Below are positions 1-21,932 of a stretch of DNA of 42,364 nt, piece by piece; the first letter of the stretch is position 1; each line of letters starts with the position of its first letter. Below the pieces are notes generated by a model. The model saw nothing but the letters and a program-made list of their open reading frames with translations, did not search any database and had not been told where the DNA came from. Position numbers and translations under genes: made by a program. Location of the stretch: assembly GCA_051892815.1 (NCBI GenBank), contig JBJFGP010000174.1, forward strand, positions 1 through 42,364, written 5' to 3'. The stretch comes from Kiritimatiellia bacterium (lineage in GTDB: Bacteria; Verrucomicrobiota; Kiritimatiellia; RFP12; DVOR01).

Positions 1-1664
1 GGTTCGACCAGCACGGGCAATTCGCGGATGGTGCCGAACTGGTTCATCAGCACGCCGTTGAAGTAGTCCAGCGCCTCGGAAATGTTGCGCCGGAAGGGTT
101 CGCGGTTGCGGCATCCGGAGGAGCTGCGCTGGGCCAGGACGACCTCGCCGACGAACTCGTGGTTGCGCAGGAACGGCAGGGGGCGTTCGAGGCGACCCTT
201 GGCTTCGGGGCCGAGGTAGGCTCGCCAATCGAAGGGGCCGGTGTTTTTGAGCAGGCGGTTCGGCGCATCGGCGAGAAAGGCGCGGTAGCGCTCCATATCG
301 CCGCCGGCGTGCATCAGTCCGCGTGCGAGGCGGGGATTGGCGAGGGTGACGACGACTTCCGTGCCTTCGGGGAGGAGTGAGTTTTCATAGAGAAAGAACC
401 AGTCGGAGACGCGGTCGAGGATGGTGGTCTTGTTTCCCGCGGGGTCGCTGCTGCGCAGGTCGTAGGCGATTGGGAACCAACCTTCGGGGAACATTCCCGG
501 GCAGGTCTGGCGGTGAAAGATACTATGCGCCTGGGCCTGCATCTTGATACCCCATTCGACATGGTCGTCAAAGGAATTGTAGACGCCAAGGCCAAAGACA
601 TCCGTGTGCCCCAGCACATTCAGCCCGCCCTGGAGTCCCGAGTACTGCTCGTTGAAGCGGCTAAAGGGCGGAAGCGGCCCGTGCACTTCAATCTTCGCTA
701 GGCACGACAAGGTGTTGAACTCGATGCCGTTTACCACACGGGAGAGCGGGAACTTGACATAACTGTTCATTCCTTTGCGCAGGCGGAACCGGACCGCCGG
801 CAGCGCACCCTCCGTAGAAGAACACTCCTTGAGGCTCTTCGGGTCAAGGAAAAGCGGCTCCACGCGGCAACCGTCCAGTTTGCAACTGCTGTGCGTGCGA
901 GCCCCCTTCACAGGCAGGCGGACACTCTCTTCACGGTGCGACTCCACCCAAGCGTAAACATTGGAAACGGTATTGGACGCGACAATCGGCACCCCCGCCT
1001 CGAAGATGCGCTTTTCGATCCACCTGCGTTGGGGCAGATCCGAGAAACGGGCCTCTTTCCGATTGAGGATGAAATGGAAGTCAATCAGGAGATACTCCTG
1101 CCGCGCCTCCCGGGAAGGCTTGGGGTCAAAGGTAAGATTGAGGTTGTCGAGGACGGCGCGTTCGTTCGGATTGAAGAGAAGCGTATAGTGGCGGAATCCC
1201 TCCTTGGCGGGTTCGACATAGAGCGTTCCCGGCACCATCTTGCCGTCCTTGCTTTGGCGGATTGCCTCGGTGCCAATGGCCTTGGCCGTGTCGAGTTCAA
1301 GCTTGAAGCCCCTGCCCGAGGCGGAAAGGACGAGGTTCGCTGGCTTGCCACCGGTCGAGGCCTTCATCTTGAAAGAGACGCCTGCAAAGTTGCCCGCCGG
1401 CTTCCCGATTCCCGTGCATTGGATGGTGCGGCGGGTTGGTTCCTTCTCGAAGGAAGCGTTCCAGAGAAAGGCGTTGGGATTCGAGTTGGTGCTCCAGCGT
1501 TCGGCTTGAAGGCTCTTCTGGAGTTCCTCCGCGGGACAATCGCGCACTCTCAGGGCAAAGGCGTAGGTGTTGTCGTACGGGAGCCAAGTCCAATCGGGGA
1601 TGCGCGTCTGTATGGTGTATTGCTCAATGGGCTGCTGGGGGAACCAATCGGTCGGGGCGCCCAC
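1..1664 (-). CDS. hypothetical (probably secreted) protein, partial, C-terminus lies beyond window start; family not recognised
   Basis: Minus-strand frame is open from nt 1709 to the window edge, and is absent from the ORF track because it has no stop in the window. My translation (...WFPQQPIEQYTIQTRIPDWTWLPYDN...FNEQYSGLQGGLNVLGHTDVFGLGVYNSFDDHVEWG...EALDYFNGVLMNQFGTIRELPVLVE) has normal globular composition and GC-rich third positions. The first in-frame start is GTG at 1664. Confidence 0.7.
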   Translation of the reverse strand, partial: MGAPTDWFPQQPIEQYTIQTRIPDWTWLPYDNTYAFALRVRDCPAEELQKSLQAERWSTNSNPNAFLWNASFEKEPTRRTIQCTGIGKPAGNFAGVSFKMKASTGGKPANLVLSASGRGFKLELDTAKAIGTEAIRQSKDGKMVPGTLYVEPAKEGFRHYTLLFNPNERAVLDNLNLTFDPKPSREARQEYLLIDFHFILNRKEARFSDLPQRRWIEKRIFEAGVPIVASNTVSNVYAWVESHREESVRLPVKGARTHSSCKLDGCRVEPLFLDPKSLKECSSTEGALPAVRFRLRKGMNSYVKFPLSRVVNGIEFNTLSCLAKIEVHGPLPPFSRFNEQYSGLQGGLNVLGHTDVFGLGVYNSFDDHVEWGIKMQAQAHSIFHRQTCPGMFPEGWFPIAYDLRSSDPAGNKTTILDRVSDWFFLYENSLLPEGTEVVVTLANPRLARGLMHAGGDMERYRAFLADAPNRLLKNTGPFDWRAYLGPEAKGRLERPLPFLRNHEFVGEVVLAQRSSSGCRNREPFRRNISEALDYFNGVLMNQFGTIRELPVLVE

Positions 1665-1804
1665 CAGGAAGCGACATAGTCGGCTGGCGGCAAGGTGCCG
1701 AGGTCGGCGCTAGGCTCCGGCAGCTTGGTCTTGTTGGAGACGGGCGCGGCACACAGAAGGGTTCCGGTCAGCACGAAGGCTGCACAAGTCACTGTTCTTT
1801 TCAT
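1550..1804 (-). CDS. signal-peptide ORF, probably the displaced 5' end of the 1..1664 gene (frameshift)
   Basis: ATG at 1804 gives MKRTVTCAAFVLTGTLLCAAPVSNKTK..., a typical signal or lipoprotein leader. After about 45 aa the translation turns low-complexity while the adjacent frame becomes protein-like. Confidence 0.35.
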   Translation of the reverse strand: MKRTVTCAAFVLTGTLLCAAPVSNKTKLPEPSADLGTLPPADYVASWWAPRPIGSPSSPLSNTPYRRASPIGLGSRTTTPTPLP

Positions 1805-1824
1805 CTGTCGTATTCTTTCCCTGG

Positions 1825-1864
1825 ATTCTCCCTGCGGCATACAATACACCACCGCAGGGAGAAT
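1825..1864 (-). terminator. 13-bp perfect stem-loop (ATTCTCCCTGCGG / CCGCAGGGAGAAT, 14-nt loop) between two co-directional genes
   Basis: Inverted repeat read directly. It lies 32 nt downstream of the 1896 stop and 21 nt upstream of the 1804 ATG. No U-tract follows on the minus strand, so its role as a terminator is uncertain. Confidence 0.25.
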
Positions 1865-1895
1865 TGCAATAATAAAACGTTTTTTCTGGGTTCCC

Positions 1896-3461
1896 CTACC
1901 GAATCAGAATCAGCGTACCGGCGGCGAGCGGCTCGCTCAACTGAAGGGAAAGGTTATTGAGGAAGGTAGCGGCGCCGGTCTCTCCCAAGGTTGTGCCGGC
2001 CATCAACTTGAGGGTGTGGAACCCGGCCTTGAGGCCTTTCAAGGTGACGGTCTCTTCGGTGAAGGTGGTGTTCAACTCCCTTTCGACCACCACTGCTTCT
2101 TTGCCATCGAGGTAGATGGGGATACGCTGTCCGCTCGTATAATTGGCATAGTTCAGCGAGCGCATATTTATCGTCAGCGTGTAGTGTCCGTCGACAGGCG
2201 CACAGAAGGTCTGCTCAAGACCATTGCCGACCTCTGCGCCCACCGGGGCAAGCAAGCAAAGTTCCCAGGAGTTATCACTTGTAGAGCCGCCAACCGGAGT
2301 TCCACCAAGAAGCGCCCAACACACGCCGCCATAACCGTTTCCGGGACCGGTGGCTGACCAGTCCGCAAAGGCTGCATAGGGATAGGTCGCGTTGTAGAAG
2401 TCCCTGACGCGGTTCAGCCAGACGTTCCCTTCCAGACCGCCATGGACCAGTTCGAAGTCGGCATTGGCGAGCAGGTTGGCGTCTGAAGCGATGACCTTTG
2501 CGCTCAGGCGGATGTCGCCGTCACCCTCGGGAACGGTAATCGTCAAGGGGTTGGCAAGGCGGTTTTCTTCGGTGATGCCGTCGCCCACCCAGCCTACGAA
2601 GTAGTATCCGTCGTCGGGGCGGACGGAGAGGGTGTGGGTCTCTCCTGTGGTAATGGCGATTGGCTCGCCGTAGCCTTGAACGGTGCCGTTGGCGACCTCG
2701 ACTTCGATCTGGCGCTCAAAAAGGCCGAACTGCATGTCGTCTATCGTATCGACGGCGGTTGCGCTGCTCTGACAGGGTTCGGCCTGTTCGGTGTAGATGT
2801 CAAGGTCGTAGTCGCCCGCCTCCAACTGGAAGGGCTCGCTCCAGACCCTCTTCCAGTCATCACGGGTAGAGTCCGACCGTACGATATGCTGGAACGTGCG
2901 GCTGAAGACGGCTTGGCCGCCAACTTCGATGGTCATTTTGCTATCGGCCCAGTTGCTGCCGCGTGTGCCGCCGGGACCATGCCAAAAGGAAATCTGATAG
3001 GTTCCCGCCTGAGGCACCGTCACCTTTTGGCGCAGGCGTTTGGGGACATAAACGACGTTCGCCGCACCCGCGGGCGCCTTGGCATGGAATGCAATGCGTT
3101 GATTCTTGCTCTCGCGCGAAGAGGACGAGACCTTACTCACATTGGAATTGGGCGGGGTGTAGTAGATGGTGTTCGGGTAGGTCGTGAGCGTCGTACCGTC
3201 TTCCAACTCGGTATCCTCCTGCACCACGAGCTCCCAGTACGTCAGCGGCTGAATCACAACCCCGCCCGGACTCGTTTGGCCCACGAGTTCCAAATTGCCG
3301 TAGCCGTTGCCCTGGTTCATATTGAGCCGGTCGGGATTTTCGATAGGATCGTCGAACCCCGGATCGTTCAGCAGGTTGTCGCCGACGATGCCAGCACGAG
3401 CCACGTTCACGGAGCAGCAAACCGTTGCCGCCGCAATATAATATGGAATAGACAGACGCAT
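1896..3461 (-). CDS. secreted protein with two CBM/DUF642-like modules flanking an InlB-B-repeat-like module
   Basis: ORF 1896..3623, with the start trimmed to ATG 3461 (MRLSIPYYIAAATVCCSVNVARA signal peptide, AAGG Shine-Dalgarno). Modules start NLLNDPGFDDP and NLLANADFELV. The middle reads GTVQGYGEPIAITTGETHTLSVRPDDGYYFVGWVGDG. The protein ends ...AAGTLILIR. Confidence 0.85.
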   Translation of the reverse strand: MRLSIPYYIAAATVCCSVNVARAGIVGDNLLNDPGFDDPIENPDRLNMNQGNGYGNLELVGQTSPGGVVIQPLTYWELVVQEDTELEDGTTLTTYPNTIYYTPPNSNVSKVSSSSRESKNQRIAFHAKAPAGAANVVYVPKRLRQKVTVPQAGTYQISFWHGPGGTRGSNWADSKMTIEVGGQAVFSRTFQHIVRSDSTRDDWKRVWSEPFQLEAGDYDLDIYTEQAEPCQSSATAVDTIDDMQFGLFERQIEVEVANGTVQGYGEPIAITTGETHTLSVRPDDGYYFVGWVGDGITEENRLANPLTITVPEGDGDIRLSAKVIASDANLLANADFELVHGGLEGNVWLNRVRDFYNATYPYAAFADWSATGPGNGYGGVCWALLGGTPVGGSTSDNSWELCLLAPVGAEVGNGLEQTFCAPVDGHYTLTINMRSLNYANYTSGQRIPIYLDGKEAVVVERELNTTFTEETVTLKGLKAGFHTLKLMAGTTLGETGAATFLNNLSLQLSEPLAAGTLILIR

Positions 3462-3507
3462 AGCGAACCTTTTTGACAAATGATTCTGACAAGACTTTGC
3501 GCCTGTC

Positions 3508-3545
3508 ATTTTAGCCCCCCCCCCCCCCCCCCCCCCTGATGTCAA
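3508..3545 (-). promoter_or_regulatory. sigma70-like promoter: TTGACA (3545..3540), 26-nt spacer containing G22, TAAAAT (3513..3508)
   Basis: The minus strand reads TTTTGCTTGACATCA-G22-CTAAAATGACAGG. It lies about 47 nt upstream of ATG 3461. Confidence 0.5.
3515..3536. repeat. homopolymer C22 (G22 on the coding strand of the downstream gene)
   Basis: Counted directly in the sequence. Confidence 0.95.
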
Positions 3546-3596
3546 GCAAAAAGTGCGTCTCGCGCCAAGAAATTTTTCGGGTTCAATCGGCCCCCA

Positions 3597-3712
3597 CTCC
3601 CCGAAGATGCCAACCTGCCACACCCCAAGGTAGCAATGTCCGCCCCCGAAAGGTACCCGAGATCGGGTGCGGAAGGTGCCTACCCGCCGCCCCGAAAGGT
3701 ACCAACGAAACG
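3597..3712. repeat. tandem array, 5 units, exact 23-bp period (C-rich orientation on plus strand)
   Basis: AAGGT/AAGAT anchors at 3604, 3627, 3650, 3673 and 3696. An example unit is CCCCGAAAGGTACCAAC. Confidence 0.85.
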
Positions 3713-3715
3713 CCC

Positions 3716-4768
3716 CTAGTGCTCCGCCTCGCCCTCGTGGAACGAACCGTCCGCGTGAAAGTGTCCCGAGGCCCCCTTCTCCCCCGCATCAAGCTGCGAA
3801 ACCAGCGCGTAGGCCCCCTCCACCACCACCTCGTCCGACGCCCCGATTCCCTCGACCGCCGCACGACCCTCGCGCTCCGCCAACACACGAACCGGACGCG
3901 CCTCAAAGTGGTCAGACTCCCCCTTCTCCCGCACCAACACCACCAGTTCAAGCCCACGCCGCACCACCGCGCGAGCCGGAACCGTCAGCCGCTCCGCCCC
4001 CCCCTTCGGAGCCAGCCACACCTCCGCCCGCTCCCCAGCCAACGCACCCACCCCCTCCGGCTCCGACAACCTCAGCCGCACCATCCCCTCCGCGCCCGAC
4101 GGCAAAACCGCGTACCTCGCCGGCTGTCCCCCGACCGACACCGATGCTCCATCCTTCAGCCCGCGCCACACCCCCGAAGGCACCTCCAGCGTCAGCGCCA
4201 ACGCCCCCTTCCGCACCAGCCGCACCAGCGAAGCCCCCCCCTCCACCTGCGCCAAATTGCCCGCGTCAAACCCCGACACCACCCCCTCGCACGGCGCCAA
4301 AAGCCGCCACACCCCGCCCGACACCACAACCCCGGAAAGCCCATAGCCCGACATCTCAGACACTACCCTCCCCAACGCCGACTCAAGTTCCGCATGACCC
4401 GTCCCCAACCGCTCATAATGCCCCAGGCGCGCCCTCAACCGAGCCCCCTCCGCCTCAAGCTCCCGCAGCCGAGGTGCCTCCACCTCAGCCAGCGCCTCGC
4501 CCGCCTTCACCCCCGAACCAATCCGAGAAACCAGCCGAACCCGACCCGCCAACGGCGTCCCCAGAACCAAACGATCCTCCTCCGCCACAGCCCAGAAACC
4601 AACCCCGCGCCAGCCCTCCTCCAACACCATCCGCCGCGGACGCTCCACCCTCAAACCAAGCGCCTCCCGAGCCCACTTCCCGACCGTCACAGCCTCCTCG
4701 TGGTGCCCTTCAGCCAACACCGCCAAAGGCAACCAGACCAACAGACAGATACCAACCTTTCCCATCAT
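3716..4768 (-). CDS. efflux RND periplasmic adaptor (membrane fusion protein, CzcB/CusB-like) with His-rich C-terminal tail
   Basis: 350 aa with an N-terminal signal/anchor (MMGKVGICLLVWLPLAVLA), a coiled-coil segment (APRLRELEAEGARLRARL) and a beta-barrel-like C-terminal half. The tail reads GHFHADGSFHEGEAEH. Its ATG overlaps the upstream stop (ATGA). Confidence 0.85.
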   Translation of the reverse strand: MMGKVGICLLVWLPLAVLAEGHHEEAVTVGKWAREALGLRVERPRRMVLEEGWRGVGFWAVAEEDRLVLGTPLAGRVRLVSRIGSGVKAGEALAEVEAPRLRELEAEGARLRARLGHYERLGTGHAELESALGRVVSEMSGYGLSGVVVSGGVWRLLAPCEGVVSGFDAGNLAQVEGGASLVRLVRKGALALTLEVPSGVWRGLKDGASVSVGGQPARYAVLPSGAEGMVRLRLSEPEGVGALAGERAEVWLAPKGGAERLTVPARAVVRRGLELVVLVREKGESDHFEARPVRVLAEREGRAAVEGIGASDEVVVEGAYALVSQLDAGEKGASGHFHADGSFHEGEAEH

Positions 4769-7700
4769 CTCTCAACCTCCTCCAGCCAGCACGCATACCC
4801 CAATTCCGCCGCCGCATCCAGCAACGAATCCGACCACGACAACTCCGACAACGCCCCCTCAAGACGCTCCTCCATCAACTCAAAACACCCCACTGCATCC
4901 ACCTCCCCCGAACGATACAACCCCCACGGATCCAACACCCCCGCCGCCGGCCGGTGTGCCAACAGACGCGACACCTTCCCGGCAACCTCCGCCGCCGCAG
5001 ATACCCTCCTCTTCCAGCACATCGCAACCTCCTCCAGCGACACCTCCCGCCTACCCGTCGCCTCCGCGATTGCCAACCGGTTGCGGTTCCAGATAGGCAG
5101 ACTCACCCCCACGCCGAACCCGAGACGGTCGCTCCCGTCTTCCCGTTCGTAGAGCGGCGAGAGCGACACCTCCGGGTACTGCCGGCGCACTTCAAGCCGC
5201 AACTCCGCTTCGCTTGCCCCGAGCCGCCCCATTGCCGCCAAAACCTCCGGATGGCGCACAAGATCGAGTGCCGCAGGAAGTTTCAGCGGCCCCCTCGGAA
5301 GCGCAGGAATCCCCTCGTCCAAAGCAATCTCCGAGCCCGGATGGAGCCCGAGCAGCCGCTTCAGATCTGCCTCCGCCTCGGCCTCTTTCTCGCGCAACTC
5401 CTGGGCCAGATGCTGCCTTTCGTGGTGGCGGCGGCGTACCGACGAGGCGGTCCCTTTGGAGAGTTCCCCCGCCTGCGACAGGTGGTCGACCGCCGAGAGC
5501 AGAGATGCCAACCTGTCGGACCCCAAGTAGTCAACCACCGTCTCACGGCGGCGGCGTATCCCCTTGAGGCGGAGCCAGGCACGAACGGCGGCGTTGGAGG
5601 TCGAGAGTTCGGCCGATTGGAGGGCAAGTCTCTCGGCTTGGGTGTACATCTCCCGGGCGCGGCGCTGGAGCGAAGGGGTTCCGGAGATGGGCAGGACGAG
5701 GCCGATTCCTGCGCCGAAGAGGAAGGGGTGGTCGGACGGCTGTGCGATGCGCAGGAGGTCGAAGGAGAGGTCGGGATCTGCCCAGTAACCGGAGGCTTGG
5801 GCGGCTTTCCGGGTGTGGGCGAGTTTGGTTCGGGCGAGGCTGAGTTCGGGGTTGCCGATGAGGGCGGTCCTGGCTGCGTCGGCGGGGGTTTGGAGGGTAA
5901 TGCGGGCGGGGCGCCATTGGTCGGATCGGGTCTGGAGGTCGAGTTGGGCGGGGTGGTAGGCGATGCAGCCGGCGAGGAGGATGGGTAGGCAGGCGAGGAG
6001 GGCGGTGGTTGGCACCTTTGGGGTGCGTTCGGTGAGGATGACGAGTGCGGGGAGTACGAGTTGGTTGAGGAGGAGGGCGCCCAGGATGCCGCCGAACTGG
6101 ACGGTTGCGAGGGGGGCGAGGAGTTCGCCTCCGGGGGTGTCGGCGCTGAGCATCAGGGGGATGAGTCCGAGGAGGGTGGTGAGGGTGGTCATTATGATGG
6201 GGGCGAGGCGTTCGCGGGCGCCTTCGCGCAGGGCTCTCGGGAGGGGCTGGCCTTGGTCGAGGCGCTGGAGGAGGGCGTTGAGCAGGAGCAGTCCGTTGCG
6301 CAGGGCAAAGCCTGTGACGGTGACGAAGCCGACTAGGGCGCTGACGCTGAGGCTGGTGTGGGCGAGGCGGGCGGCCAGGATGCCGCCGATGAGGGCGAGG
6401 GGCAGGTTGACGAGGGCCAGGAGGGCGTGGCGGAGGCGTCCGAGGCTCAGGGTGAGGAGGGCGAGGATGAGGGCGAGGAGGGCGGCGGAGGCGAGCAGGA
6501 GGGTGCGGGTGGCGCTTTGGCGGGCTTCGTGGCTGCCGGTGAGGGTGAGGTCGCAGCCTAGGTTTTGGGCGGCGGGTTGGAGGCGTTGGAGGAGGGTTTG
6601 GACGACTTGTCCGCTGCTGGCTTTGCCGTCGAGGTTGCAGGAGATGAGGGCTTTGCGGCGGCCGTTTTCGCGCAGGAGCATCAGGGGGGCTTCTTCGGCG
6701 CGGAGGGTGGCGACGGATGCGAAGGGAACGGGCTGTCCGCGGCCACCGACGAAGGTGAATCGGCGCAGGTCGCGTTCGGTCTGGCTGGAATCGTCGGCGA
6801 GGCGGATAGCAACCTCCCGGCGCGATTGGTTGGCAAGAATGGTTCCCACAGGTAGGCTCCTGTAGGCGGCGGAGATTTGTATCCCCGCATCCCTAAGGTT
6901 CATACCTTCCGCGGCGAGGGCTGCGGGGTCGTAGTCGATGCGCAAGGTACGGCCCGTGGCCTCGCGGTTGGCGCGAATGTCGGCGATGCCGGGCACCGAC
7001 GCGATGAGGGGTTTCAAGGTTTGGACCGCCGCGCGCAAACGATTCGGATCTTCGCAATAGAGGTTCACGGCCAGTTCCGCCTCGGTCCCGGAGAGGATGG
7101 CGCTGATGCGGTGCTCGATGGGATAGCCGACCATCACGCTGGCGCCGGGTATCGATCCGAGCCGTTCGCGGATGGCTTGGCGCACCGCAGAGGCGTCCCC
7201 GTCGAGGTGGACGATGAACTCGGTACTGGAGACAGGTTCGGCGTGCTGATCGCGCTCCGCACGCCCCGTCCGCCGCACGACCTTCCCGACGCCCGGGATG
7301 GAGGAGAGCACCCGACCGGCGTGCCGAGCCGTACGCTCCGCCTCCGGCAGCGACGCCGAAGGACTCAGCGACAAGAGCACATTCAGGGTCGGCTCGTGCA
7401 GCGGCGGCAGGAAACTCGTGCCCAGCCTCGTCGCCAAAGATGCCGACCAGACCGCCAACAGCAAGACGGGAATCAGCGTCAGAATCGGGTGCCGAATCGA
7501 GCACTCCAAACACGGCGCGTAGAGCCGATCCAAAAGCCTCATCAGAGGCGCCCGCCCCTTCGAAACGCCCCCGCCCGAACCACCCTCAAGCAACAGAGAA
7601 AGGCACGGCACCACCACCACCGCAACCGCGAACGACGCCCCCAGAAGCGCCAGATACGCCTTCCCCAAAGGCTTGAAAAATCGCCCCTCCAACCCGGGAA

Positions 7701-9054
7701 GCAGAAACAGCGGAACAAACGCCAGCACGATAATCGCTACCGAACAAAGCACACTCGGAAACACTTCTGCCACCGCATTCGCAACCACCTCCCGCCGCGA
7801 CAGATACCCCCCTTCGTCAAGCCTTCTGCGTATCGCCTCGGCAAAGACAATGCCCGAGTCGACAATGTCTCCAGCCGCAACAGCCACCCCACCCAATGTC
7901 ATCACATCCACCCCAATCCCAAGCACCGGAAAGAGCGAAACACCCGCCAGAACCGTCAGAAAAAGCGACGCCAAAACCACCAGAATCGAACGCCATTTCA
8001 GGAGCGTCAGAGCCAATACCACCAGCACGATCCAAAGCGTGTCCCGGAGGATTCCGCGCACACCCCGGAGCGACGTTTCTATGAAGTCCGCCTGGCGGTA
8101 GGCGGCAGGTTCGACAGTCAGTCGTGCGCCATTCCGGGCGGCGAAGGAAGCCAGCACCGAGTCGATTTTCCGCGTTAGTTCGAGGGTGTTTCCACCGGGC
8201 GTTTTCTGCACGGAGAGGAGTACCGCTTCAGCGGAATCGAGGCTAGCAGAACCCCTTCTGGGTGCGCCCGAAAGGGTGACATCAGCGGCTTGTCGGAGTC
8301 GGAGAGAAGGGCTCAAAGGGAGGTCGCGGAGGGCTTCGAGCGTCTCTACCCGGGCGGTTTGTTCGAGGGGGATTTCTTCAGACCTGTCGTCCGGAAGGTA
8401 GCCTGCGACGGGGCGCGAGAGGGCGGCACGAAGGGTATCGGCGAGTTGGTCTGGGCGGATGCCGAGGGAAGCCAGGCGGATGGGGGTGGTGTTGATTCGA
8501 TATTCGGGAAGGGCACCGCCCATGACGGCGACTTCGCCGACACCTGGGATGGCGAGGAGTTGGGGCCTGAGGTCGTATTCGGCTCGTTCGCGCAGGTCGA
8601 GGAGGTTGGCATCTTTTGTTGGAATCAGTGCGATGAGTTGGATCTCGCCGGTGACTGCCAATGGGGGTGCGATCTCGGGTTTGGCCTCTGGGGGGAGGTC
8701 GGTTTGGAGGCGTGCGAGGCGTTCGTAGAGGCGGGTTCGGGCGCGGTCCAGGTTTTCGCGCCAGTCGAGGTCGATGGTGATGATGGAGAGTCCGATGGTG
8801 GAGGAGCTGCGGATGGTGCGGACTTGGCCGATTCCGTAGGCGGCGGTCTCGAGGATTCGTGTGACGCGCTGTTCGGTTTCGGCGGCGGTGAGTCCGGGGG
8901 CTTCGGTCTGGAGAACGAGTCGCGGGGGTTGGATGTCGGGGAAGATGTCGACGGGCAGCCCGCGCAGTCCCAGGAGGCCGGCGAGGGCTACGGCGGCTAG
9001 GGCTGCGAGGGTGGTCTTGGGGTGGTCGAGGAGGGGTGCAAGGAGGGGGCGCAT
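4765..9054 (-). CDS. RND efflux permease (heavy-metal CzcA/CusA-like, aa 1 to ~1010) fused in frame to an outer-membrane factor (TolC/CzcC-like lipoprotein, aa ~1015-1429)
   Basis: 1429-aa uninterrupted ORF. The N-terminus reads ...LPVDIFPDIQPPRLVLQTEAPGLTAAETEQRVT, and 12-TM RND topology is apparent. An internal lipobox ALLACLPILLAGC has its Cys codon at 5965..5967. It is followed by about 399 aa of OMF-like sequence. Confidence 0.85.
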   Translation of the reverse strand: MRPLLAPLLDHPKTTLAALAAVALAGLLGLRGLPVDIFPDIQPPRLVLQTEAPGLTAAETEQRVTRILETAAYGIGQVRTIRSSSTIGLSIITIDLDWRENLDRARTRLYERLARLQTDLPPEAKPEIAPPLAVTGEIQLIALIPTKDANLLDLRERAEYDLRPQLLAIPGVGEVAVMGGALPEYRINTTPIRLASLGIRPDQLADTLRAALSRPVAGYLPDDRSEEIPLEQTARVETLEALRDLPLSPSLRLRQAADVTLSGAPRRGSASLDSAEAVLLSVQKTPGGNTLELTRKIDSVLASFAARNGARLTVEPAAYRQADFIETSLRGVRGILRDTLWIVLVVLALTLLKWRSILVVLASLFLTVLAGVSLFPVLGIGVDVMTLGGVAVAAGDIVDSGIVFAEAIRRRLDEGGYLSRREVVANAVAEVFPSVLCSVAIIVLAFVPLFLLPGLEGRFFKPLGKAYLALLGASFAVAVVVVPCLSLLLEGGSGGGVSKGRAPLMRLLDRLYAPCLECSIRHPILTLIPVLLLAVWSASLATRLGTSFLPPLHEPTLNVLLSLSPSASLPEAERTARHAGRVLSSIPGVGKVVRRTGRAERDQHAEPVSSTEFIVHLDGDASAVRQAIRERLGSIPGASVMVGYPIEHRISAILSGTEAELAVNLYCEDPNRLRAAVQTLKPLIASVPGIADIRANREATGRTLRIDYDPAALAAEGMNLRDAGIQISAAYRSLPVGTILANQSRREVAIRLADDSSQTERDLRRFTFVGGRGQPVPFASVATLRAEEAPLMLLRENGRRKALISCNLDGKASSGQVVQTLLQRLQPAAQNLGCDLTLTGSHEARQSATRTLLLASAALLALILALLTLSLGRLRHALLALVNLPLALIGGILAARLAHTSLSVSALVGFVTVTGFALRNGLLLLNALLQRLDQGQPLPRALREGARERLAPIIMTTLTTLLGLIPLMLSADTPGGELLAPLATVQFGGILGALLLNQLVLPALVILTERTPKVPTTALLACLPILLAGCIAYHPAQLDLQTRSDQWRPARITLQTPADAARTALIGNPELSLARTKLAHTRKAAQASGYWADPDLSFDLLRIAQPSDHPFLFGAGIGLVLPISGTPSLQRRAREMYTQAERLALQSAELSTSNAAVRAWLRLKGIRRRRETVVDYLGSDRLASLLSAVDHLSQAGELSKGTASSVRRRHHERQHLAQELREKEAEAEADLKRLLGLHPGSEIALDEGIPALPRGPLKLPAALDLVRHPEVLAAMGRLGASEAELRLEVRRQYPEVSLSPLYEREDGSDRLGFGVGVSLPIWNRNRLAIAEATGRREVSLEEVAMCWKRRVSAAAEVAGKVSRLLAHRPAAGVLDPWGLYRSGEVDAVGCFELMEERLEGALSELSWSDSLLDAAAELGYACWLEEVER

Positions 9055-9254
9055 CAGTCGCGTTCTCTGGTGTTTTTGCGGGTGCGGAGATGGCGATGGC
9101 GGCGGCAGAGGGTATGGGTCTTGGGGGGCGTGTCGCGGGCATCGGCGGGTCGGATTTCGACCTTTGCGGCGGGGGCGTTGGTGGTTGGGTTCTCGGCCTT
9201 TGCGGTGCAGGTGGCGAGGGTGAGGAGGAGTAGGGTAAGGGCAATGGGTTTCAT
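9054..9254 (-). CDS. small putative lipoprotein (66 aa)
   Basis: MKPIALTLLLLTLATC carries a lipobox. Third positions are GC-rich, and the stop overlaps the RND start as TGATG (translational coupling). The basic C-terminus includes CRRHRH. Confidence 0.5.
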   Translation of the reverse strand: MKPIALTLLLLTLATCTAKAENPTTNAPAAKVEIRPADARDTPPKTHTLCRRHRHLRTRKNTRERD

Positions 9255-9324
9255 ATCCGTTCTGCTTTGGGGTGTGGAGGGTTGGCTCCTGCCGGTTGGC
9301 GGGAGGCGGTTGCAGAACGGGGTG

Positions 9325-9720
9325 TCAGGCGAGCGGGCAGAGTCTCGTGGCGTAGGTGCGGTAGTGGTCGCCGGGGGGGGCGGCGGGCTGGTGGGCGCGG
9401 GGGATTGGGGCGGGCTCGCGGGGGGTGGCGATGAGGCAGGCGATTGGGGGATGGGAGGGCGCGGGCAGGCCGAGGTGGTGCTGCTCGACGGGGTGGGTCG
9501 GCTGGCTGTGGAGGATGAGGTGGGTGCAGGGGTCGCCGGCCTGGAGGGTGGTGTGCGCGGGGGCGGTTTCGCCGCCGCAGTCGTGGCATTCTCTGCCGCA
9601 TCCGTCGGGGTCCGGGTTGCAGAGGCAGAGGGCGCGCGCGGTCAACGGCGCGGCGAGGAGGGTCGCCGCGGCGAGGAGCGTGGCCAAGGCCTTTTTCAAC
9701 CAGTTCCCTTTGGATTCCAT
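9325..9720 (-). CDS. secreted Cys/His-rich small protein, putative periplasmic metal-binding accessory
   Basis: Signal peptide KKALATLLAAATLLAAPLTARA, then LCLCNPDPDGCGRECHDCGG and several His residues. Third positions are GC-rich. A canonical promoter lies directly upstream. Confidence 0.55.
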   Translation of the reverse strand: MESKGNWLKKALATLLAAATLLAAPLTARALCLCNPDPDGCGRECHDCGGETAPAHTTLQAGDPCTHLILHSQPTHPVEQHHLGLPAPSHPPIACLIATPREPAPIPRAHQPAAPPGDHYRTYATRLCPLA

Positions 9721-9726
9721 ACCTTC

Positions 9727-9755
9727 ACTCTAGCATTTCCGGCGGGGGATGTCAA
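9727..9755 (-). promoter_or_regulatory. sigma70-like promoter TTGACA (9755..9750) - 17 nt - TAGAGT (9732..9727)
   Basis: The -10 hexamer ends 6 nt before the A of ATG 9720. The transcript would therefore be leaderless or nearly so. Confidence 0.5.
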
Positions 9756-9797
9756 GCCTGCACCGGCGGGGGCCGGGCGGGCGGAGGCGGGGGCAGT

Positions 9798-9886
9798 GGG
9801 TAGGCACCTTTGGGGTCGACGGGTTGCAACCTTTCGGGGGCTGAGGTGGGCACCTTCGGGGGCGGGAGGTATCAACCTTTCAGATC
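9798..9886. repeat. tandem array, 4 units, exact 23-bp period (G-rich orientation on plus strand)
   Basis: ACCTT anchors at 9806, 9829, 9852 and 9875. Unit cores are GGTAGGCACC, GGTTGCAACC, GGTGGGCACC and GGTATCAACC. Confidence 0.9.
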
Positions 9887-10453
9887 GAGAGATTGGTAGG
9901 CGGCGATGGTCCGCTCGAACAGTTCGTCGAGCGTCCAGCCCAAGAGATTGGCGCCGCGGGCGATAACCTCCCGGGAGCATCCGGCGGCGAACTTGCGGTC
10001 TTTGAACTTCTTGCGGACGCTCTTGAGGTTGAGGTCCGCCGCGCACTTCGAGGGGTACATCAGCACGATGGCCCCGAGCAGCCCCGTCAGCTCGTCCACC
10101 GCGTAGAGCACCCGCTCCATCGGATGCTCCGGGGCGATGTCGTTGACGATGGCATAGCCGTGCGACGCCACCGCGCGGGCGACCGACTCCTCAACTCCCG
10201 CCTCCTTCAGAAGCGCCAGTGAGCGGGCACAGTGCTCCTGCGGCCAGAGCTCGAAGTCGATATCGTGCAGCAGCCCCACAATCCCCCAATACTCCTCCTC
10301 CGCGCCAAACCCGAGCGCCCGCGCAAACCAACGCATCGTCCCCTCCACCGTCCGCGCATGGAGCAGATGGAACGGCTCCTTGTTGTAGCGCAGAAACAGT
10401 TCCCACGCCGCCGCGCGCGACAGCCGAGTCGATCGGATCATCGATTCATTCAT
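9872..10453 (-). CDS. HD-domain metal-dependent phosphohydrolase
   Basis: 193 aa with GLLHDIDFE (HD motif) and downstream His/Asp residues. ATGA overlap with the upstream gene. Confidence 0.8.
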   Translation of the reverse strand: MNESMIRSTRLSRAAAWELFLRYNKEPFHLLHARTVEGTMRWFARALGFGAEEEYWGIVGLLHDIDFELWPQEHCARSLALLKEAGVEESVARAVASHGYAIVNDIAPEHPMERVLYAVDELTGLLGAIVLMYPSKCAADLNLKSVRKKFKDRKFAAGCSREVIARGANLLGWTLDELFERTIAAYQSLDLKG

Positions 10454-11649
10454 CCTCCAAACTCCCGTTCCAGAAACGCCCCCGTCCGCGCAAGCGCTTC
10501 CTCAAGCCGCGCCCGCGGGCAAGCCAGATTCACCCGCAAATACGCCGTCCCCGGAGGCTCGCCAAAGATGGCCCCGGGCGAAAACTTCACCCCCGACTCC
10601 TGCTCCAACCGGCGCGCCAGTTCCGTCGACGAAACCCCAAGGCTCGAACACTCCACCCACCCCAGATAAGTCGACTCCATCCGCCCCACCGCAAGCCCCA
10701 GCCCGACCCCGTGGCAAAACCCCTCCAGCACCCCCCAATTCCCGCCAATGTAGGCGCAAAGTTCGTCCAGCCACCCCCCGCAGAAACGCCACGCCGCCTC
10801 CGAAGCAACCAGACCGAACAGGTTCGGCTCGACCGCGCGATTCAGCCGCAGGACCCTGCCAATCCGCTCCCTTGCCGCCTCATCCGGACACACCACCGCG
10901 GCCGCCTGAAGCCCCGCCAGATTGAACGCCTTCGAGGCCGAATGAAAACTCGCCCCCACCCGCCCGATACCATCCCCAAGCGACAGAAAAGGCACATGCG
11001 CCGACCCCGCCATCTGCAAATCCCCGTGGATCTCGTCGCTCGCCACAAACACCCCATGCCGCCTGCACAACTCCCCCACCCGCGCCAACTCCGCCAAGCG
11101 CCACGAACGCCCCGCCGGATTGTGCGGATTCGAAAGAATCAACAGCTTCGTACGCCCATCCGCCAGCTTCCGCTCCAAATCCCCGAAGTCCATCCGATAG
11201 GTGAAATCACCCTCCTTCCCGCCCGGGAGCGGCACCCGCCGAAGCCGATTTTCCTCCACATAGCAACCCTGCTCGCGGATCACATCGTAGAAACAATTGT
11301 AGACCGGAGGTTGGATTACCACGCTGTCGCCGGGATTGCAGAAAGCCCTCACCGTAGCCGCGAGAGCCGGCACCACGCCCGAGCACGCAATGACCGACTC
11401 CGTGCCCACCCGCAGCCCGTGGCGGTGCCAAAGCCACTGGACCAGCGCTTCCTTCCACCGGGGCGGGACGAGCGTATATCCGAAGAGGCCCGATTCCAAT
11501 CTCCGCCTCAAAGCCTCGACTATCTCCGGGGCCGCGCGGAAGTCCATGTCGGCGACCCAAAGCGGCAAGACATCTGCCCGTTCGGGTGCGTCCCATTTGA
11601 GGCTGTCGGTGCCGCGCCGCGGGAGTAGTTCGTTGAAGTCAAAGGCCAT
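10450..11649 (-). CDS. patB: PLP-dependent C-S lyase (MalY/PatB-type cystathionine beta-lyase)
   Basis: MAFDFNELLPRRGTDSLKWD..., NPHNPAGR, and SASKAFNLAGL (PLP lysine). Start set at ATG 11649. Confidence 0.85.
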   Translation of the reverse strand: MAFDFNELLPRRGTDSLKWDAPERADVLPLWVADMDFRAAPEIVEALRRRLESGLFGYTLVPPRWKEALVQWLWHRHGLRVGTESVIACSGVVPALAATVRAFCNPGDSVVIQPPVYNCFYDVIREQGCYVEENRLRRVPLPGGKEGDFTYRMDFGDLERKLADGRTKLLILSNPHNPAGRSWRLAELARVGELCRRHGVFVASDEIHGDLQMAGSAHVPFLSLGDGIGRVGASFHSASKAFNLAGLQAAAVVCPDEAARERIGRVLRLNRAVEPNLFGLVASEAAWRFCGGWLDELCAYIGGNWGVLEGFCHGVGLGLAVGRMESTYLGWVECSSLGVSSTELARRLEQESGVKFSPGAIFGEPPGTAYLRVNLACPRARLEEALARTGAFLEREFGG

Positions 11650-12772
11650 TGGCGATACCTTTCTCCGCGCCCCGGATGCGCCCATCCCAGGTCTTGAAGA
11701 CGACTTCCTGTCCGTGCCGGCGGATGGCGGCGTAGACCTCGTTTGGCGGGCGGGAATCGTTCAGGAGGAACTGGGCAATGTCTCCAGATGGTTCGGCGTA
11801 GCCGCCCGGGGTGGTACGCGAGCCGGCGCTCATGTTGTCGGCGGCATCGAGGACGATTCGGTCTCTGAATTCGGGGCTTTCGCGGGTTGAAACGGTCATG
11901 GCGCATTGGGGGAATGCGATGCGGAAGGCGAGCATCAGCTGTTCGAGTTCGTGCTCGCCGACTTCGCAGGGGGGAAGGAATCCGCCCTCGACGCGGCACA
12001 AACGTGGGAAGGCGAATTGTATCTTGGACTGGGGGCATTCGCGCATCAGATAGAGGGCGTGCGCGGCCAGGCTGGCGGCCTCTTCGCGCCAGGGGGCGAG
12101 GCCGAGGAGGAAGGCGCAGCCGAGGGTTCGGAAGCCTGCGCGTCCGGCGCGGAGTTGGGTTTCGAGGCGCCAGGTGTAGTCGCTCTTTGGGCCGGCGGGG
12201 TGCATCCGGCGGTAGCAGGCGGGGTCGTAGGTTTCCTGGAAGCAGACGAGTCCTTCGTACCCGGCGGCGAAGAGTTGGCGGTAGGCGTTCTCGCTTTGGG
12301 GGGCGACTTCGAGGAGGAGGTTTGAGAAGCGGCTGGCGAGGAGTCTGCCGACCTCGGCGAGGTGTTCGACGGTGTTGACGAGGGGGTCTTCTCCGGCGAC
12401 GACGAGTACGGTGTCGAGGCCGGCCCGCTTGAGCGCGTCGGCCTCCCGGCCAATCTCCGCAAGGGTGAGGTTCCTGCGGGCGAGTCCTTTGCGCCGCTGG
12501 CTGAAGTCGCAGTAGAGGCAGGAGTTGACGCAGGTGTTGCCGATGTAGAGCGGGGCGTAGACGCTGACGGTCCGGCCGTAGTGGCGCAGGCGCGCGAGCC
12601 GGGCCTTTTCGCGCATGGCTCCGAGGAATGAGGCGGCTTGGGGGCTAATCAGGTTGAGCAGGTCGAACCAGCCGGGGCGGACCTTCCGGAGCGAATCGGA
12701 GATAGTTTCCTCCGTCACCGAAAGGAAGTAATCTCCGAGTTCCTGTCGTGTGTACCTCAGATGGGGAAACAT
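11639..12772 (-). CDS. thiH: 2-iminoacetate synthase ThiH (radical SAM tyrosine lyase)
   Basis: Start trimmed to ATG 12772 (MFPHLRYTRQEL...). CVNSCLYCDF is the CxxxCxxC motif. About 377 aa, so it lacks a HydG-type C-terminal extension. It follows thiG. Confidence 0.85.
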   Translation of the reverse strand: MFPHLRYTRQELGDYFLSVTEETISDSLRKVRPGWFDLLNLISPQAASFLGAMREKARLARLRHYGRTVSVYAPLYIGNTCVNSCLYCDFSQRRKGLARRNLTLAEIGREADALKRAGLDTVLVVAGEDPLVNTVEHLAEVGRLLASRFSNLLLEVAPQSENAYRQLFAAGYEGLVCFQETYDPACYRRMHPAGPKSDYTWRLETQLRAGRAGFRTLGCAFLLGLAPWREEAASLAAHALYLMRECPQSKIQFAFPRLCRVEGGFLPPCEVGEHELEQLMLAFRIAFPQCAMTVSTRESPEFRDRIVLDAADNMSAGSRTTPGGYAEPSGDIAQFLLNDSRPPNEVYAAIRRHGQEVVFKTWDGRIRGAEKGIANGL

Positions 12773-12791
12773 GCCTACCTCCCGGAACTGG

Positions 12792-13556
12792 TCATACGAA
12801 CAAATCCCCCGGACTCGTCGCCGAAGCCGTCGCGCGCGGCGCCGCAGGACGCGCCCCGATCGCCAGTTCCGCCGAGCGCACCGCCAGCGCGAAAGCCTCC
12901 GCCATCCGAACCGGATCGCCCGCCGCGGCGATGGCCGTGTTGGCCAGCACCGCGTCGGCCCCGAGTTCAATCGCCTCGGCCGCGTGCGACGGCAGCCCCA
13001 AGCCCGCGTCGACCACCACCGGCACGCGGCTCTGCTCGACGATGATGCCAATCATCTCCCGCGTCACCAGCCCGAGACTCGACCCGATTGGAGCCCCCAG
13101 CGGCATCACCGCCGCGGCCCCCGCCTCCTCGCAGCGGCGCGCCAGGACCGGATCCGCGTTGATGTACGGCAGCGCCACCAGCCCAAGCCTCGAACACCCT
13201 TCGACCGCCTTGAGCGTCTCGACCGGATCGGGCAGGAGATAGCGCGCATCCGGGTGCACCTCGACCTTGATCCAGCGGAACCCGGCCGCCTTCCCGATGC
13301 GCGCAATCCGCAGCGCCTCCTCCGCATTCCGCGCCCCCGCCGTATTCAGCGCAACCGTCAGGCGCGAACGGTCAATCGCCCCCAGAATCGGGTCGCCTGC
13401 CGCCTCATTCTCCCGCACCCTCGCCAGCGCGACAGTCACCAGTTCCGTCCCGCTGGCTTCAATCGCCGCGCGCATCTGTTCGCACCCCGAAAACTTCCCC
13501 GTGCCCAGGAAAATGCGGCTCGAAAAGCTTCGGCCCGCAATCGTCAAAGGTTTCAT
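12792..13556 (-). CDS. thiG: thiazole synthase ThiG
   Basis: 254 aa: MKPLTIAGRSFSSRIFLGTGKF..., VMPLGAPIGS, and VVVDAGLGLPSHAAEAIELGADAVLANTAIA. Confidence 0.95.
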   Translation of the reverse strand: MKPLTIAGRSFSSRIFLGTGKFSGCEQMRAAIEASGTELVTVALARVRENEAAGDPILGAIDRSRLTVALNTAGARNAEEALRIARIGKAAGFRWIKVEVHPDARYLLPDPVETLKAVEGCSRLGLVALPYINADPVLARRCEEAGAAAVMPLGAPIGSSLGLVTREMIGIIVEQSRVPVVVDAGLGLPSHAAEAIELGADAVLANTAIAAAGDPVRMAEAFALAVRSAELAIGARPAAPRATASATSPGDLFV

Positions 13557-18401: not shown

Positions 18402-19706
18402 TCAAATCTTCTCGAATGCCTCCTCCAAAGCTGCGATGATGTCGTCGATGTGCTCGATACCGATCGAGAGACGAATCAATTCAGGCAGGACGCCGGCCTC
18501 GCGCAGCTCCTCGTCGGAGAGTTGCGAGTGCGTCGTCGACGCCGGATGGATGATCAGGCTCTTCGTGTCGCCCACGTTCACGAGGATGGAGAAGATGTCC
18601 CCGCTCGCCGCGTCCGTGAACCGCCGCGCTTCGTCCGCGCCCCCCTTCACGCCGAAGACCACCACGCCGCTCGCGCCGTTGGGCAGATACTTCGCCGAGA
18701 GTTCTGGTTGCGAGAGCGACGGATACTTCACCCACGCCACCTTCGGATGGTTTTCAAGCCACTTGGCCACCTTCAGCGCATTCTCGCTATGCCGGGCAAT
18801 CCGAAGCGGCAGCGACTCCACACCTTGCAGGAACTGCCAAGCGGCGTCAGGCGCCAGCGTCGGGCCTTGATTGCGGATGCCCACAGTCAACAGGCGAAGG
18901 CTGAACGCGACAGGGCGCAGAGGCTCCGGCAGGTCATGCGCAAAACGCAGTCCGTGGTAGCCCGCATCGGGTTCGTTGTAGAGGGCGAACTTCGGGTCAG
19001 TCCAGTCGAACTTCCCCGCATCGGTCACCACGCCGCCGATACCCGAGCCAGTCCCGCCAATCCACTTCGAGAGCGAATGGATGACCAGGTCGGCACCATA
19101 TTCGATAGGGCGCAGAAGCGGCGGCGGCGTGAAGGTCGCATCGACCACCAGAGGCAGGTGGTGCCGATGGGCGACCTCGGCGTATTTCTCCACATCGGCC
19201 AGGTCGAGCGCAGGGTTGCCGACGGTCTCAATGAAGACCAGGCGGGTCTTCTCGTTGATGGCCGCCTCGACAGCCTTGAAGTCATTCACGGGAGTGAAGT
19301 GGACTTTGATGCCGACATTGGGCAGAATGGCGGAGAACTGGGAGTAGGTGCCGCCGTAGAGGTTGTTCGCGGCGACAATCTCGTCCCCGGCACGGGCGAT
19401 GTTGGTGACGGTGAAGTAGATGGCCGCGGTGCCCGATGCGAGGGTCTGCGCCGCGGCTCCGCCTTCGAGGGCGGCGATGCGCTTAGCGAGGACATCGTTG
19501 GTCGGGTTCATGAGCCGGGCGTAAATGTTGCCGAGTTCGCGGAGGGCGAAGAGGTCGGCCCCATGTTTGGAGTCTCTGAAGTTGTAAGCCGTCGTGCGGT
19601 AGATGGGGACTGCCCTGGCATGGGTGGTCGGATCACCGTGGGCATCTTGCCCGGCATGAACGGCGAGCGTCTCCAGGTGGAGTTTGCGCGCGTTGGTATT
19701 GCTCAT
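18402..19706 (-). CDS. metY: O-acetylhomoserine/O-acetylserine sulfhydrylase
   Basis: 434 aa: LETLAVHAGQ, NPTNDVLAKRIAALEGG, VIHSLSKWIGGTG (PLP lysine) and HPASTTHSQL. Confidence 0.9.
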   Translation of the reverse strand: MSNTNARKLHLETLAVHAGQDAHGDPTTHARAVPIYRTTAYNFRDSKHGADLFALRELGNIYARLMNPTNDVLAKRIAALEGGAAAQTLASGTAAIYFTVTNIARAGDEIVAANNLYGGTYSQFSAILPNVGIKVHFTPVNDFKAVEAAINEKTRLVFIETVGNPALDLADVEKYAEVAHRHHLPLVVDATFTPPPLLRPIEYGADLVIHSLSKWIGGTGSGIGGVVTDAGKFDWTDPKFALYNEPDAGYHGLRFAHDLPEPLRPVAFSLRLLTVGIRNQGPTLAPDAAWQFLQGVESLPLRIARHSENALKVAKWLENHPKVAWVKYPSLSQPELSAKYLPNGASGVVVFGVKGGADEARRFTDAASGDIFSILVNVGDTKSLIIHPASTTHSQLSDEELREAGVLPELIRLSIGIEHIDDIIAALEEAFEKI

Positions 19707-21801: not shown

Positions 21802-21932
21802 TCGTTTGTCGCTATCGCCGGCGAAAGGGGGCTCCGATGGACGGGCGCGACGGGGTTATGCTACCACAAGCGGAGGGCTCTGGCAAGCCCGGGCTGCGGA
21901 TAGGCACCTTCGGGGTCGAATCCAAGGCTCCT

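Follow-up and report, generated by a model that had tools for sequence, protein, structure and literature searches.

Intergenic gaps in the chromosome of an uncultured Kiritimatiellia bacterium hold interspersed repeats with iteron-like architecture, in which directly repeated units of the approximate form GGT-N4-ACC-TT(Y)-GGGGG-N4 follow one another in a strict 23-bp register. No described repeat family matches these arrays, and the searchable literature gave no relevant description of Kiritimatiellia repeats or of 23-bp intergenic repeats. We tentatively favour, with a probability of about 0.4, a reading in which the arrays are iteron-like lattices of sites for a cooperatively binding protein, dispersed over the chromosome. 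This reading is preferred because the period is exact, the core asymmetric and the arrays indifferent to the direction of transcription, because they lack RNA structure, and because resident copies appear to be constrained.

Units, arrays and periodicity in the window

The window, by which we mean the whole 42,364-nucleotide stretch of DNA analysed, carries ordinary chromosomal genes (an RND efflux operon, thiamine genes, mnmA, dnaX-ybaB-recR, an amidase, Tsp, dapF, pta and tRNA-Arg), mapped as open reading frames backed by Pfam annotation. Its phosphate acetyltransferase, the pta product, is 99% identical to a protein labelled "MAG: Kiritimatiellia bacterium". The full consensus of the repeat unit reads GGT(T/A/G)G(G/C)(C/A/T)ACCTT(Y)(S)GGGGG(C)GG(N)A, and the arrays have a GC content of 65-70%. 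Information is highest at T3, A8, C10 and T11, followed by G1, G2, C9, T12 and the start of the G run. The sequence-only reading had described the core as a dyad, GGT-N4-ACC; a dyad is present, but the information at T3, A8, C10 and T11 is better captured by a pseudo-dyad with an asymmetric extension, GGT-N4-ACC-TT. The unit is also strongly strand-asymmetric, one strand being G/T-rich and the other A/C-rich; a simple symmetric dimer site would not require such asymmetry, which counts against the reading that we favour.

Upon re-reading of the sequence, the AAGAT/AAGGT anchors of the first array were found at 3604, 3627, 3650, 3673 and 3696, in the 23-nt steps originally reported. This array (3593-3707, G-rich on the minus strand, five units in 23-nt register) has the HlyD/RND operon stop (3716) on one side and the promoter region of gene 1896-3476 on the other, and the gap containing it (3477-3715) gives a lag-23 autocorrelation of z=4.0. 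The array at 9799-9890 (+) comprises four units, starting GGTAGGCACC, GGTTGCAACC, GGTGGGCACC and GGTATCAACC, the last of which overlaps the stop of ORF 9872-10453(-); ORF 9325-9720(-) has its -35 box at 9755-9750, and the array is about 45 bp upstream of this box. The array at 26474-26578 (+), placed between the divergent promoters of tRNA-Arg (26327-26403, minus strand) and dnaX, has 4-5 units of a variant subfamily, ACCTCCGG, which lacks the G run and shows little G/C skew; it includes an inverted cap motif, GGCAGGAATC, at 26539-26548(-), and its lag-23 autocorrelation reaches z=3.8.

Four units at 30833-30924 (+) are followed by a 3' cap, GGCAGGCAGGAATC, at 30925-30938, in the gap where the amidase gene (stop 30821) and ORF 30952-31533(-) converge. 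The array at 38473-38564 (+) has four clear units within a feature that spans 38450-38590 as a whole: a unit-like 23-mer at 38450-38472, which contains the -35 box of pta, precedes it in register, and the array runs into a hairpin (38545-38590) in which a pair of inverted unit cores forms a 17-bp stem and which resembles a terminator for ORF 38626-40299(-). The array at 40420-40488 (+), with three units of which the second is degenerate, lies between the divergent promoters of ORF 38626-40299(-) and of the plus strand (40499-40527).

Solo units are common, making up 21 of the 49 array or solo calls. One in the window, GATAGGCACCTTCGGGGTCGAAT at 21899-21921 (+; 21.7 bits), lies 12 bp past the stop of the NERD-helicase gene 21933-26156(-). 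Another, GGTTGGCACCTTTGGGGTGCGTT at 6007-6029 (+; 22.2 bits), is found inside a 1429-aa ORF, precisely where its AcrB part meets the lipoprotein signal peptide that belongs to the outer-membrane-factor part; owing to this position it looks like a former intergenic site, and the ortholog of the locus in the related genome SUG3732 (see below) keeps a unit-like sequence (locus L019, position 7825). The third, GGTAGGCACCTATCGGGGTCGGT at 23386-23408 (+; 20.7 bits), is located inside the NERD-helicase ORF and falls between the NERD and AAA_11 domains. The recurrence of the family along the window was thus borne out by six arrays that print in perfect 23-nt register and by the solo unit at 21899, while a further site proposed at 9262 is a single weak match with no lag-23 signal and is not convincing.

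Statistical tests of the spacing were based on the bare dyad pattern and are independent of any trained matrix. GGTN4ACC occurs 28 times in the window, compared to 9.9±3.1 times in dinucleotide shuffles, and pairs of dyads 23 bp apart occur six times, compared to 0.00 in 100 shuffles. All same-strand dyad pairs in the window that are no more than 120 bp apart are spaced by 23, 46 or 69 bp. The periodicity extends beyond the window, as shown by 123 kb of conspecific DNA, in which the distance from one perfect dyad to the next is 23 bp (29 times), 46 bp (three times), 69 bp (once) or 121 bp (once), and never 22 or 24 bp. Half of the dyads (14 of 28) fall within the 2,963 bp of intergenic sequence, at about 13 times the coding density; strong matches to a position weight matrix, which was trained on these same units, are 47-66 times as dense in intergenic as in coding sequence. 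Of the 12 window gaps longer than 100 bp, six have their identity autocorrelation maximum (z of 3 to 4) at lag 23 or 46. Arrays occupy six of these 12 gaps, with a solo unit in one more, so that the "almost every gap" of the sequence-only reading becomes about half. TRF alone detects a period of 23 at 9789-9863 and 38476-38536; a third period-23 match, at 27793-27836, is a proline-rich coding repeat in dnaX and no member of the family. A regular 46-bp super-unit of alternating A and B units can be seen in some arrays and is not general.

The same arrays were recovered in five independent assemblies or read sets (NCBI, ENA and Logan), and they are therefore not assembly artefacts. Together, this recovery and the shuffles rule out an origin by chance or composition.

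Lineage range and evolution of the arrays

In a scan of one genome per GTDB species for two adjacent units, 27 stretches matched, 12 of which belonged to one representative genome, Kiritimatiellia bacterium SUG3732 (GCA_034178815.1), whose pieces are packed with 23-bp arrays. The other stretches were scattered singletons, close to the approximately 17 matches expected by chance on a rough estimate. No further family members emerged from a scan of JGI metagenome contigs, and cousins with about 70% pta identity are devoid of the 23-bp units. The relative GCA_002309765.1 is an example of a genome without arrays, and the organism of ERR12318434 is one that bears them. The family was found only in the SUG3732 lineage, with a variant form at one locus (pta) of a sister species. 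The GTDB scan also matched true 23-bp arrays in Bacteroides, Anaerobutyricum and others, as a cross-phylum family might; a scan of viral contigs, in which 23-bp tandem units with GGT-N4-ACC recur in phage-like DNA, then showed the search pattern to be satisfied by every 23-bp tandem repeat in which GGT-N4-ACC is present, and we therefore attribute these matches to ascertainment rather than homology. Two cousin genomes (L006 and L038) possess 22-23-bp dyad arrays of their own, unrelated in sequence to the window family, which suggests that phased short arrays may be a wider habit of this group of Kiritimatiellia. Extrapolating from the window and one unbiased locus (L002), there is roughly one array per 6 kb; this and other genome-wide statements are extrapolations, as they build on about 170 kb of the lineage.

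We aligned orthologous arrays between the window strain and the strains of loci L002-L005 and L019. The SUG3732 ortholog of the array at 9799 is longer by precisely one 23-bp unit, and at 30833 the strain of locus L003 carries a 68-bp insertion, corresponding to about three units; there were no other indels inside the aligned orthologous arrays. Core positions (GGT, ACCTT) differ in 13% of comparisons and all others in 32% among 13 orthologous units of the window strain and SUG3732 (Fisher p=7e-4). Non-core identity is 40-46% within one array and 44% between arrays; since membership of one array brings no extra similarity, the arrays are not recent local duplications. A sister organism (pta 87% identical, GC content 54%) also has an array upstream of pta, at the corresponding position, with four units and a period of 23 bp. 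These units (GCTAGCAACCTCTCCCTCGCAAA, GGTAACAACCTTCGCCTCGAGAA, GCTAGTAACCTCTTCCGCCAAGA and GGTCTCAACCTCCTGTGACGGCG) retain the core as G(G/C)T-N4-AACCT and have a C-rich spacer in place of the G run, indicating that the G run is dispensable for the lattice. The intact phase of arrays whose units have diverged, the conservation of the core between strains and the persistence of an array in the sister species point to purifying selection on the core and the spacing of resident copies.

These observations bear on the main rival to a protein-binding lattice, namely that the family is a selfish or neutral composite repeat without a host role, a minisatellite resembling BOX or MIRU elements. According to this explanation, ancestral 23-bp modules together with a terminal cap spread by transposition or recombination, and the number of modules shifts by slippage or unequal crossing-over. 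We regard it as unlikely, although several features of the family suit it: the repeats are dispersed, intergenic and confined to one lineage, many of them are solo, and a 3' cap, GGT(A/T)GGCAGGAATC in the G-rich sense, recurs at about six arrays. The cap motif occurs twice in the window, both times at arrays, versus 0.16 occurrences expected, and suggests descent from a composite, possibly mobile, element. Moreover, arrays border a strain-variable segment. The direct arrays at 38473 and 40420 flank a segment of 1.85 kb (38566-40414), containing a 557-aa ORF and its promoter, that is replaced in three other strains by about 140 bp of unrelated sequence, with homology resuming within array units on both sides; the arrays may recombine as a side effect and may in this way have a role in rearrangement between strains. 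This possible role, the recurrent cap and the existence of inverted unit pairs were all absent from the sequence-only reading.

Other features speak against a selfish repeat. The core of orthologous copies is 2.3 times better conserved than the rest, the sister species keeps its array at pta in spite of a changed spacer, and the phase is unbroken even though units are as diverged within as between arrays. In addition, no 5' module, terminal inverted repeats or target-site duplications were seen at the arrays, the window encodes neither a RAYT (TnpA_REP) nor any other transposase, and none of the three orthologous loci compared showed presence/absence polymorphism of a whole array.

Among characterised repeats, BOX elements have boxB modules of about 45 bp, terminal boxA and boxC modules with inverted-repeat character and a predicted RNA fold, unlike the window units, which measure 23 bp and come without a 5' module, terminal inverted repeats or a stable fold. 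Pneumococcal BOX (boxA-boxBn-boxC) is nonetheless interspersed and intergenic, and the number of its tandem inner module, boxB, varies by strain (PMC3049150). The window family resembles the Streptococcus pneumoniae element in these respects, as its module number varies (indels of 23 and 68 bp) and its terminal cap recurs. With mycobacterial MIRU/VNTR and cyanobacterial STRR loci it shares a tandem, intergenic organisation at many loci and copy-number differences between strains. MIRU units are 40-100 bp long and STRR units 7 bp, and MIRU copies within a locus are similar; in contrast, window units are no more alike within an array than between loci, yet strictly in phase. REP sequences are imperfect palindromes of 20-40 nt that form stable hairpins, occur mostly as inverted pairs and are mobilised by RAYT transposases, and binding of architectural proteins (IHF, gyrase) has been proposed for REP/BIME elements. 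Like the REP/BIME (REPIN) elements of enterobacteria and pseudomonads, the window family is intergenic, high-copy and lineage-specific and forms occasional inverted-pair hairpins, but its units are direct repeats and self-complementary over 3+3 bp only.

Gene context, RNA structure and DNA conformation

Arrays had been said to occur in either orientation, following genes, in gaps where genes converge and in divergent promoter regions, and all of these arrangements were seen when the gene map was combined with promoters located by consensus scans. The arrays at 3593-3707, 9799 and 38473 lie between a gene end and the next co-directional promoter, the solo unit at 21899 and the array at 30833 between convergent gene ends, and the arrays at 26474 and 40420 between divergent promoters, where read-through transcription is not expected. 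The first two of these arrays, 3593-3707 and 9799, have equivalent gene contexts and opposite orientations. All three types of gap were encountered again at locus L002, for which genes were called independently. Of ten window units or arrays, nine have the plus strand as their G-rich strand (binomial p=0.02), a bias that may reflect a link with the direction of replication.

Arrays are situated just upstream of -35 boxes and are out of register with them except at pta, where both the -35 and the -10 box are in register with the array at 38473. We considered whether the arrays could be duplicated promoter modules consisting of a -35 box plus a 17-bp spacer (6+17=23), and dropped this idea because the promoters at 9755, 26595, 26442/26448 and 40499 are 4-10 bp off the lattice. 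Sigma-54 or ECF promoters, called to mind by TGGCAC and TTGC in the units, were likewise discarded, as the spacing is 23 bp rather than 12 bp and there is no -12/-10 partner.

An explanation at the RNA level, which we consider improbable, could take two forms: in the C-rich sense the arrays would serve as Rho-utilisation or 3'-UTR elements, while in the G-rich sense (G)GAGGU or GGA-like motifs would titrate an RNA-binding protein or ribosomes, in the manner of CsrB/RsmZ. A rut region, read in the direction of the upstream transcript, has much C, little G and no structure. At four of the seven window loci (9799, 21899, 30833 and 38473) the array or unit follows a stop codon in the C-rich, G-poor sense, leaving some room for an RNA-level role, and few intrinsic terminators are predicted in the array gaps. 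Conversely, the array at 3593-3707 has the sense opposite to that expected of a rut element in a like gene context, and those at 26474 and 40420 are found between divergent promoters. The replacement of the G run by a C-rich spacer on the same strand in the sister species is, in addition, a change that a strand-specific RNA function would not tolerate.

Folding predictions agree with the earlier view that the units are not hairpin-forming REP elements. Four of five arrays gave z values between -0.1 and -2 in both senses, and in the units the arms outside the 3-bp GGT/ACC core do not pair. Even with G-U pairs counted, only 47-68% of units could pair at the positions flanking the GGT and ACC triplets, and for the most part their N4 is not self-complementary; neither folding nor pairing counts support stable hairpins or arms extended by G-U pairs. 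The exception is the stretch 38463-38600, where inverted unit cores form the 17-bp stem of the hairpin at 38545-38590 (z=-5.4). Inverted unit pairs also form a long hairpin at locus L011 (1639-1694), and such strong hairpins are compatible with action as RNA. So are the 22-nt units of the distant relative L006, which contain CACGGAUGUG, a sequence that we take to resemble the CsrA SELEX consensus. Sponge RNAs such as CsrB and RsmZ display many GGA motifs in hairpin loops and have a promoter and a terminator of their own, whereas the window units exhibit no conserved GGA, no consistent fold and no Rfam match. At gathering thresholds Rfam identified only tRNA-Arg in the window, and at E<=1 it returned nothing in the 2.4-kb stretch 38300-40700, so that the arrays correspond to no Rfam family.

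A third possibility is that the phased G5/C5 runs adopt non-B conformations (G-quadruplex, i-motif or A-like DNA), through which they would influence transcription or replication, the dyad being no more than a loop. In conservation the G5 run ranks second among the features of the unit, and the plus-strand bias described above would fit such a role, but with 23 nt from one G run to the next the canonical G3+N1-7 quadruplex motif does not arise, arrays of four or more units are the minority, and the best-conserved positions lie outside the G run. The 26474 subfamily and the sister species, moreover, retain the lattice without the G run. We consider non-B DNA very improbable, and it is, like a role in RNA, less likely than a protein-binding lattice.

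Finally, the arrays had rightly been distinguished from CRISPR arrays, in which near-identical repeats of 23-47 bp alternate with unique spacers of similar length and cas genes or a leader lie nearby: window units abut without spacers and are degenerate (40-46% non-core identity), and the window ORFs are housekeeping genes by Pfam, with no cas genes. The only CRISPR locus met in any of the scans was an unrelated archaeal one (L021). Overall, the family is set apart from CRISPR, REP/BIME elements and sponge RNAs, and it has part of the properties of BOX elements and of iterons.

A candidate protein-binding lattice

Plasmid and phage iterons are near-identical copies at one origin, next to which DnaA boxes, an AT-rich unwinding element and a rep gene are found. 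Unlike them, the window arrays are degenerate and GC-rich, with six arrays and three solo units distributed over 42 kb among housekeeping genes, and no rep gene was detected in the window. The architecture is similar in other respects, since, like the iterons of R6K, pPS10, RK2, P1 and F, the arrays consist of 2-5 direct units with exact 23-bp spacing and an asymmetric core. Iterons are 3-7 direct head-to-tail repeats of 17-22 bp, about 22-23 bp from centre to centre, and each repeat is bound by one protomer of the initiator (Rep) protein, cooperatively and in dependence on helical phase, such that a half-turn shift abolishes cooperativity (PMC4980987).

By analogy, we suggest that the window arrays are head-to-tail lattices of sites for one abundant, sequence-specific DNA-binding protein, with one protomer or one dimer per 23-bp unit. 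As neighbouring units are about 2.2 helical turns apart, the bound proteins would be displayed on nearly the same face of the DNA, and could bind cooperatively for this reason, as Rep does on plasmid iterons. The sequence-only reading had already argued for a role at the level of DNA and had suggested a dimeric protein on the dyad. Core conservation, the kept phase and the array in the sister species fit the first proposal, with binding itself deduced from these patterns. As to the second, whether the protein is a dimer is uncertain: with an asymmetric conserved unit in head-to-tail repetition, the arrays are equally compatible with monomer or iteron-style binding. No obvious candidate for the protein is encoded in the window, where the small ORFs beside the arrays have no Pfam match.

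Occupied arrays would form nucleoprotein blocks between transcription units, namely just upstream of -35 boxes, where two promoters diverge and where gene ends converge. Such blocks would probably act as architectural or boundary elements, be it as roadblocks, topological insulators or organisers of the nucleoid. Judging from position, a boundary or roadblock, a topological barrier and nucleoid organisation are all possibilities for the function of an array. Recombination between arrays may be a side effect of the lattice; the number of units varies between strains, and two arrays flank the variable 1.85-kb segment.

A bolder version, of which we are doubtful, is a genome-wide "chromatin boundary" system in which a lineage-specific protein polymerises on phased 23-bp lattices. 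Lattices between most transcription units would then set topological or transcriptional boundaries, and recognition sequence and protein would co-evolve quickly, as might be reflected in the different cores of the 22-23-bp lattices of sister and cousin Kiritimatiellia. The lattices might also be favoured breakpoints at which gene cassettes are gained or lost.

Interspersed repeats such as REP, BOX, MIRU, ERIC and STRR are common in bacteria, and most are without an established function. Among them, the 23-bp family provides an unusually clean signal of constraint, in that an exact period and a small asymmetric core are kept and the remainder, including base composition, drifts, which is the pattern expected of protein-binding lattices. 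For an uncultured lineage of the PVC group, the family makes a concrete binding experiment possible. If there is no partner protein, it would still be useful as a VNTR marker for strain typing and a possible substrate for recombination in the lineage. If a partner protein exists, the arrays would represent iteron-style cooperative binding on the scale of a chromosome and would bear on how transcription units are insulated in compact genomes; demonstration of the partner together with a boundary function would raise the importance of the family further.

Strand polarity and elements at array ends

The G-rich strand of the repeats coincides with the plus strand in nine of the ten units or arrays of the window, regardless of gene orientation (binomial p=0.02), and local co-orientation of units was also seen at several loci of SUG3732 (GCA_034178815.1), a Kiritimatiellia MAG of the same lineage. 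Read in the G-rich sense, a motif GGT(A/T)GGCAGGAATC was repeatedly found at the 3' ends of arrays, with sites in the window at 30925-30938 and, on the minus strand, 26539-26548, and in the comparison loci L010 (1594), L025 (7150-7159, minus strand) and L036 (5220). The stop codon of an opposite-strand gene is often 10-30 bp away from it.

Two inverted unit cores build a hairpin with a 17-bp stem at 38545-38590, which strain L004 of the window lineage also keeps; a comparable inverted pair of units is present at 1639-1694 of locus L011. As the hairpin is followed on the minus strand by CUACCUUUUAG, the arrangement looks like a terminator, putatively that of ORF 38626-40299.

Phased repeats in relatives and other contigs

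Window-type units were absent from L006 (GCA_031552845.1), a cousin whose pta shows 72% identity, and this locus has intergenic arrays of its own with a period of 22 bp (9340-9560 and 19411-19503). Its array repeats, exemplified by GTACTGTTTCACGGATGTGAAA and AAAACCTATACGGGTTTCGTAC, are each a short dyad centred on ACGG(G/A)T; one unit, CACGGAUGUG, is similar to the CsrA SELEX consensus. A further relative, L038 (GCA_965339035.1), bears an array with a period of 23 bp built from strong 8-bp palindromes (TAGACGTACATCCATCCCAGGGA), as well as long intergenic runs of ATGGAC/GTCCAT at 9-bp steps, its repeat regions spanning 192-277, 600-900 and 3895-3945.

Dozens of distinct, short and densely packed tandem repeats, whose periods are 7, 8, 9, 22 and 23 bp and whose copy numbers reach 22, occupy positions 1-13321 of a metagenome contig (VOFD01001305.1), where they sit between small ORFs, one of which has a YafQ toxin domain; one of these repeats, GGTGCGCACTTCCGGGGGGTGGT (3.4 copies), is similar to the window unit. 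In an uncultured Bacteroides (CASGED010000002.1, 776-960), the space separating two genes that run in the same direction is filled by eight 23-bp units, each consisting of AAAGGT(G/A)TA(C/T)ACCTTAT and a further 6-7 variable bases; judged by their translated ends, the two genes presumably resemble phosphonate-pathway genes. Dyad arms and period are identical to those of the window family, homology with it being at most putative. Loci L023, L014 and L013 were grouped with this array.

A unit at a pump gene junction

A single minus-strand ORF of 1429 aa (4765-9054) encodes both an AcrB-type RND pump (aa 10-1007) and an outer-membrane-factor protein, the latter retaining its own lipoprotein signal peptide (..TTALLACLPILLAGC). 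The unit at 6007-6029, which includes a possible GTG start, coincides exactly with the junction between the two parts. The ORF represents either a true fusion or the loss of a stop codon; for the SUG3732 ortholog, the listed ORFs suggest a stop inside the RND part.

Homopolymer promoters and a variable cassette

Tracts of C22 (3515-3536) and C12 (40343-40354) on the plus strand each directly adjoin GCTTGACA, a -35 box on the minus strand, and the spacers of both minus-strand promoters, those of ORFs 1896-3476 and 38626-40299, therefore consist of G-runs; the spacer at 3515 would be ~26 nt long. These tracts could mediate phase variation through slippage, or the assembly could be uncertain in tract length.

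A 1.85-kb segment (38566-40414) carries a 557-aa ORF together with its promoter, and in strains L002, L003 and L005 of the same lineage ~140 bp of unrelated DNA stands in its place (compare L002 9425-9560). Since both breakpoints fall within the co-oriented arrays 38473-38564 and 40420-40488, these repeat arrays border a variable cassette.
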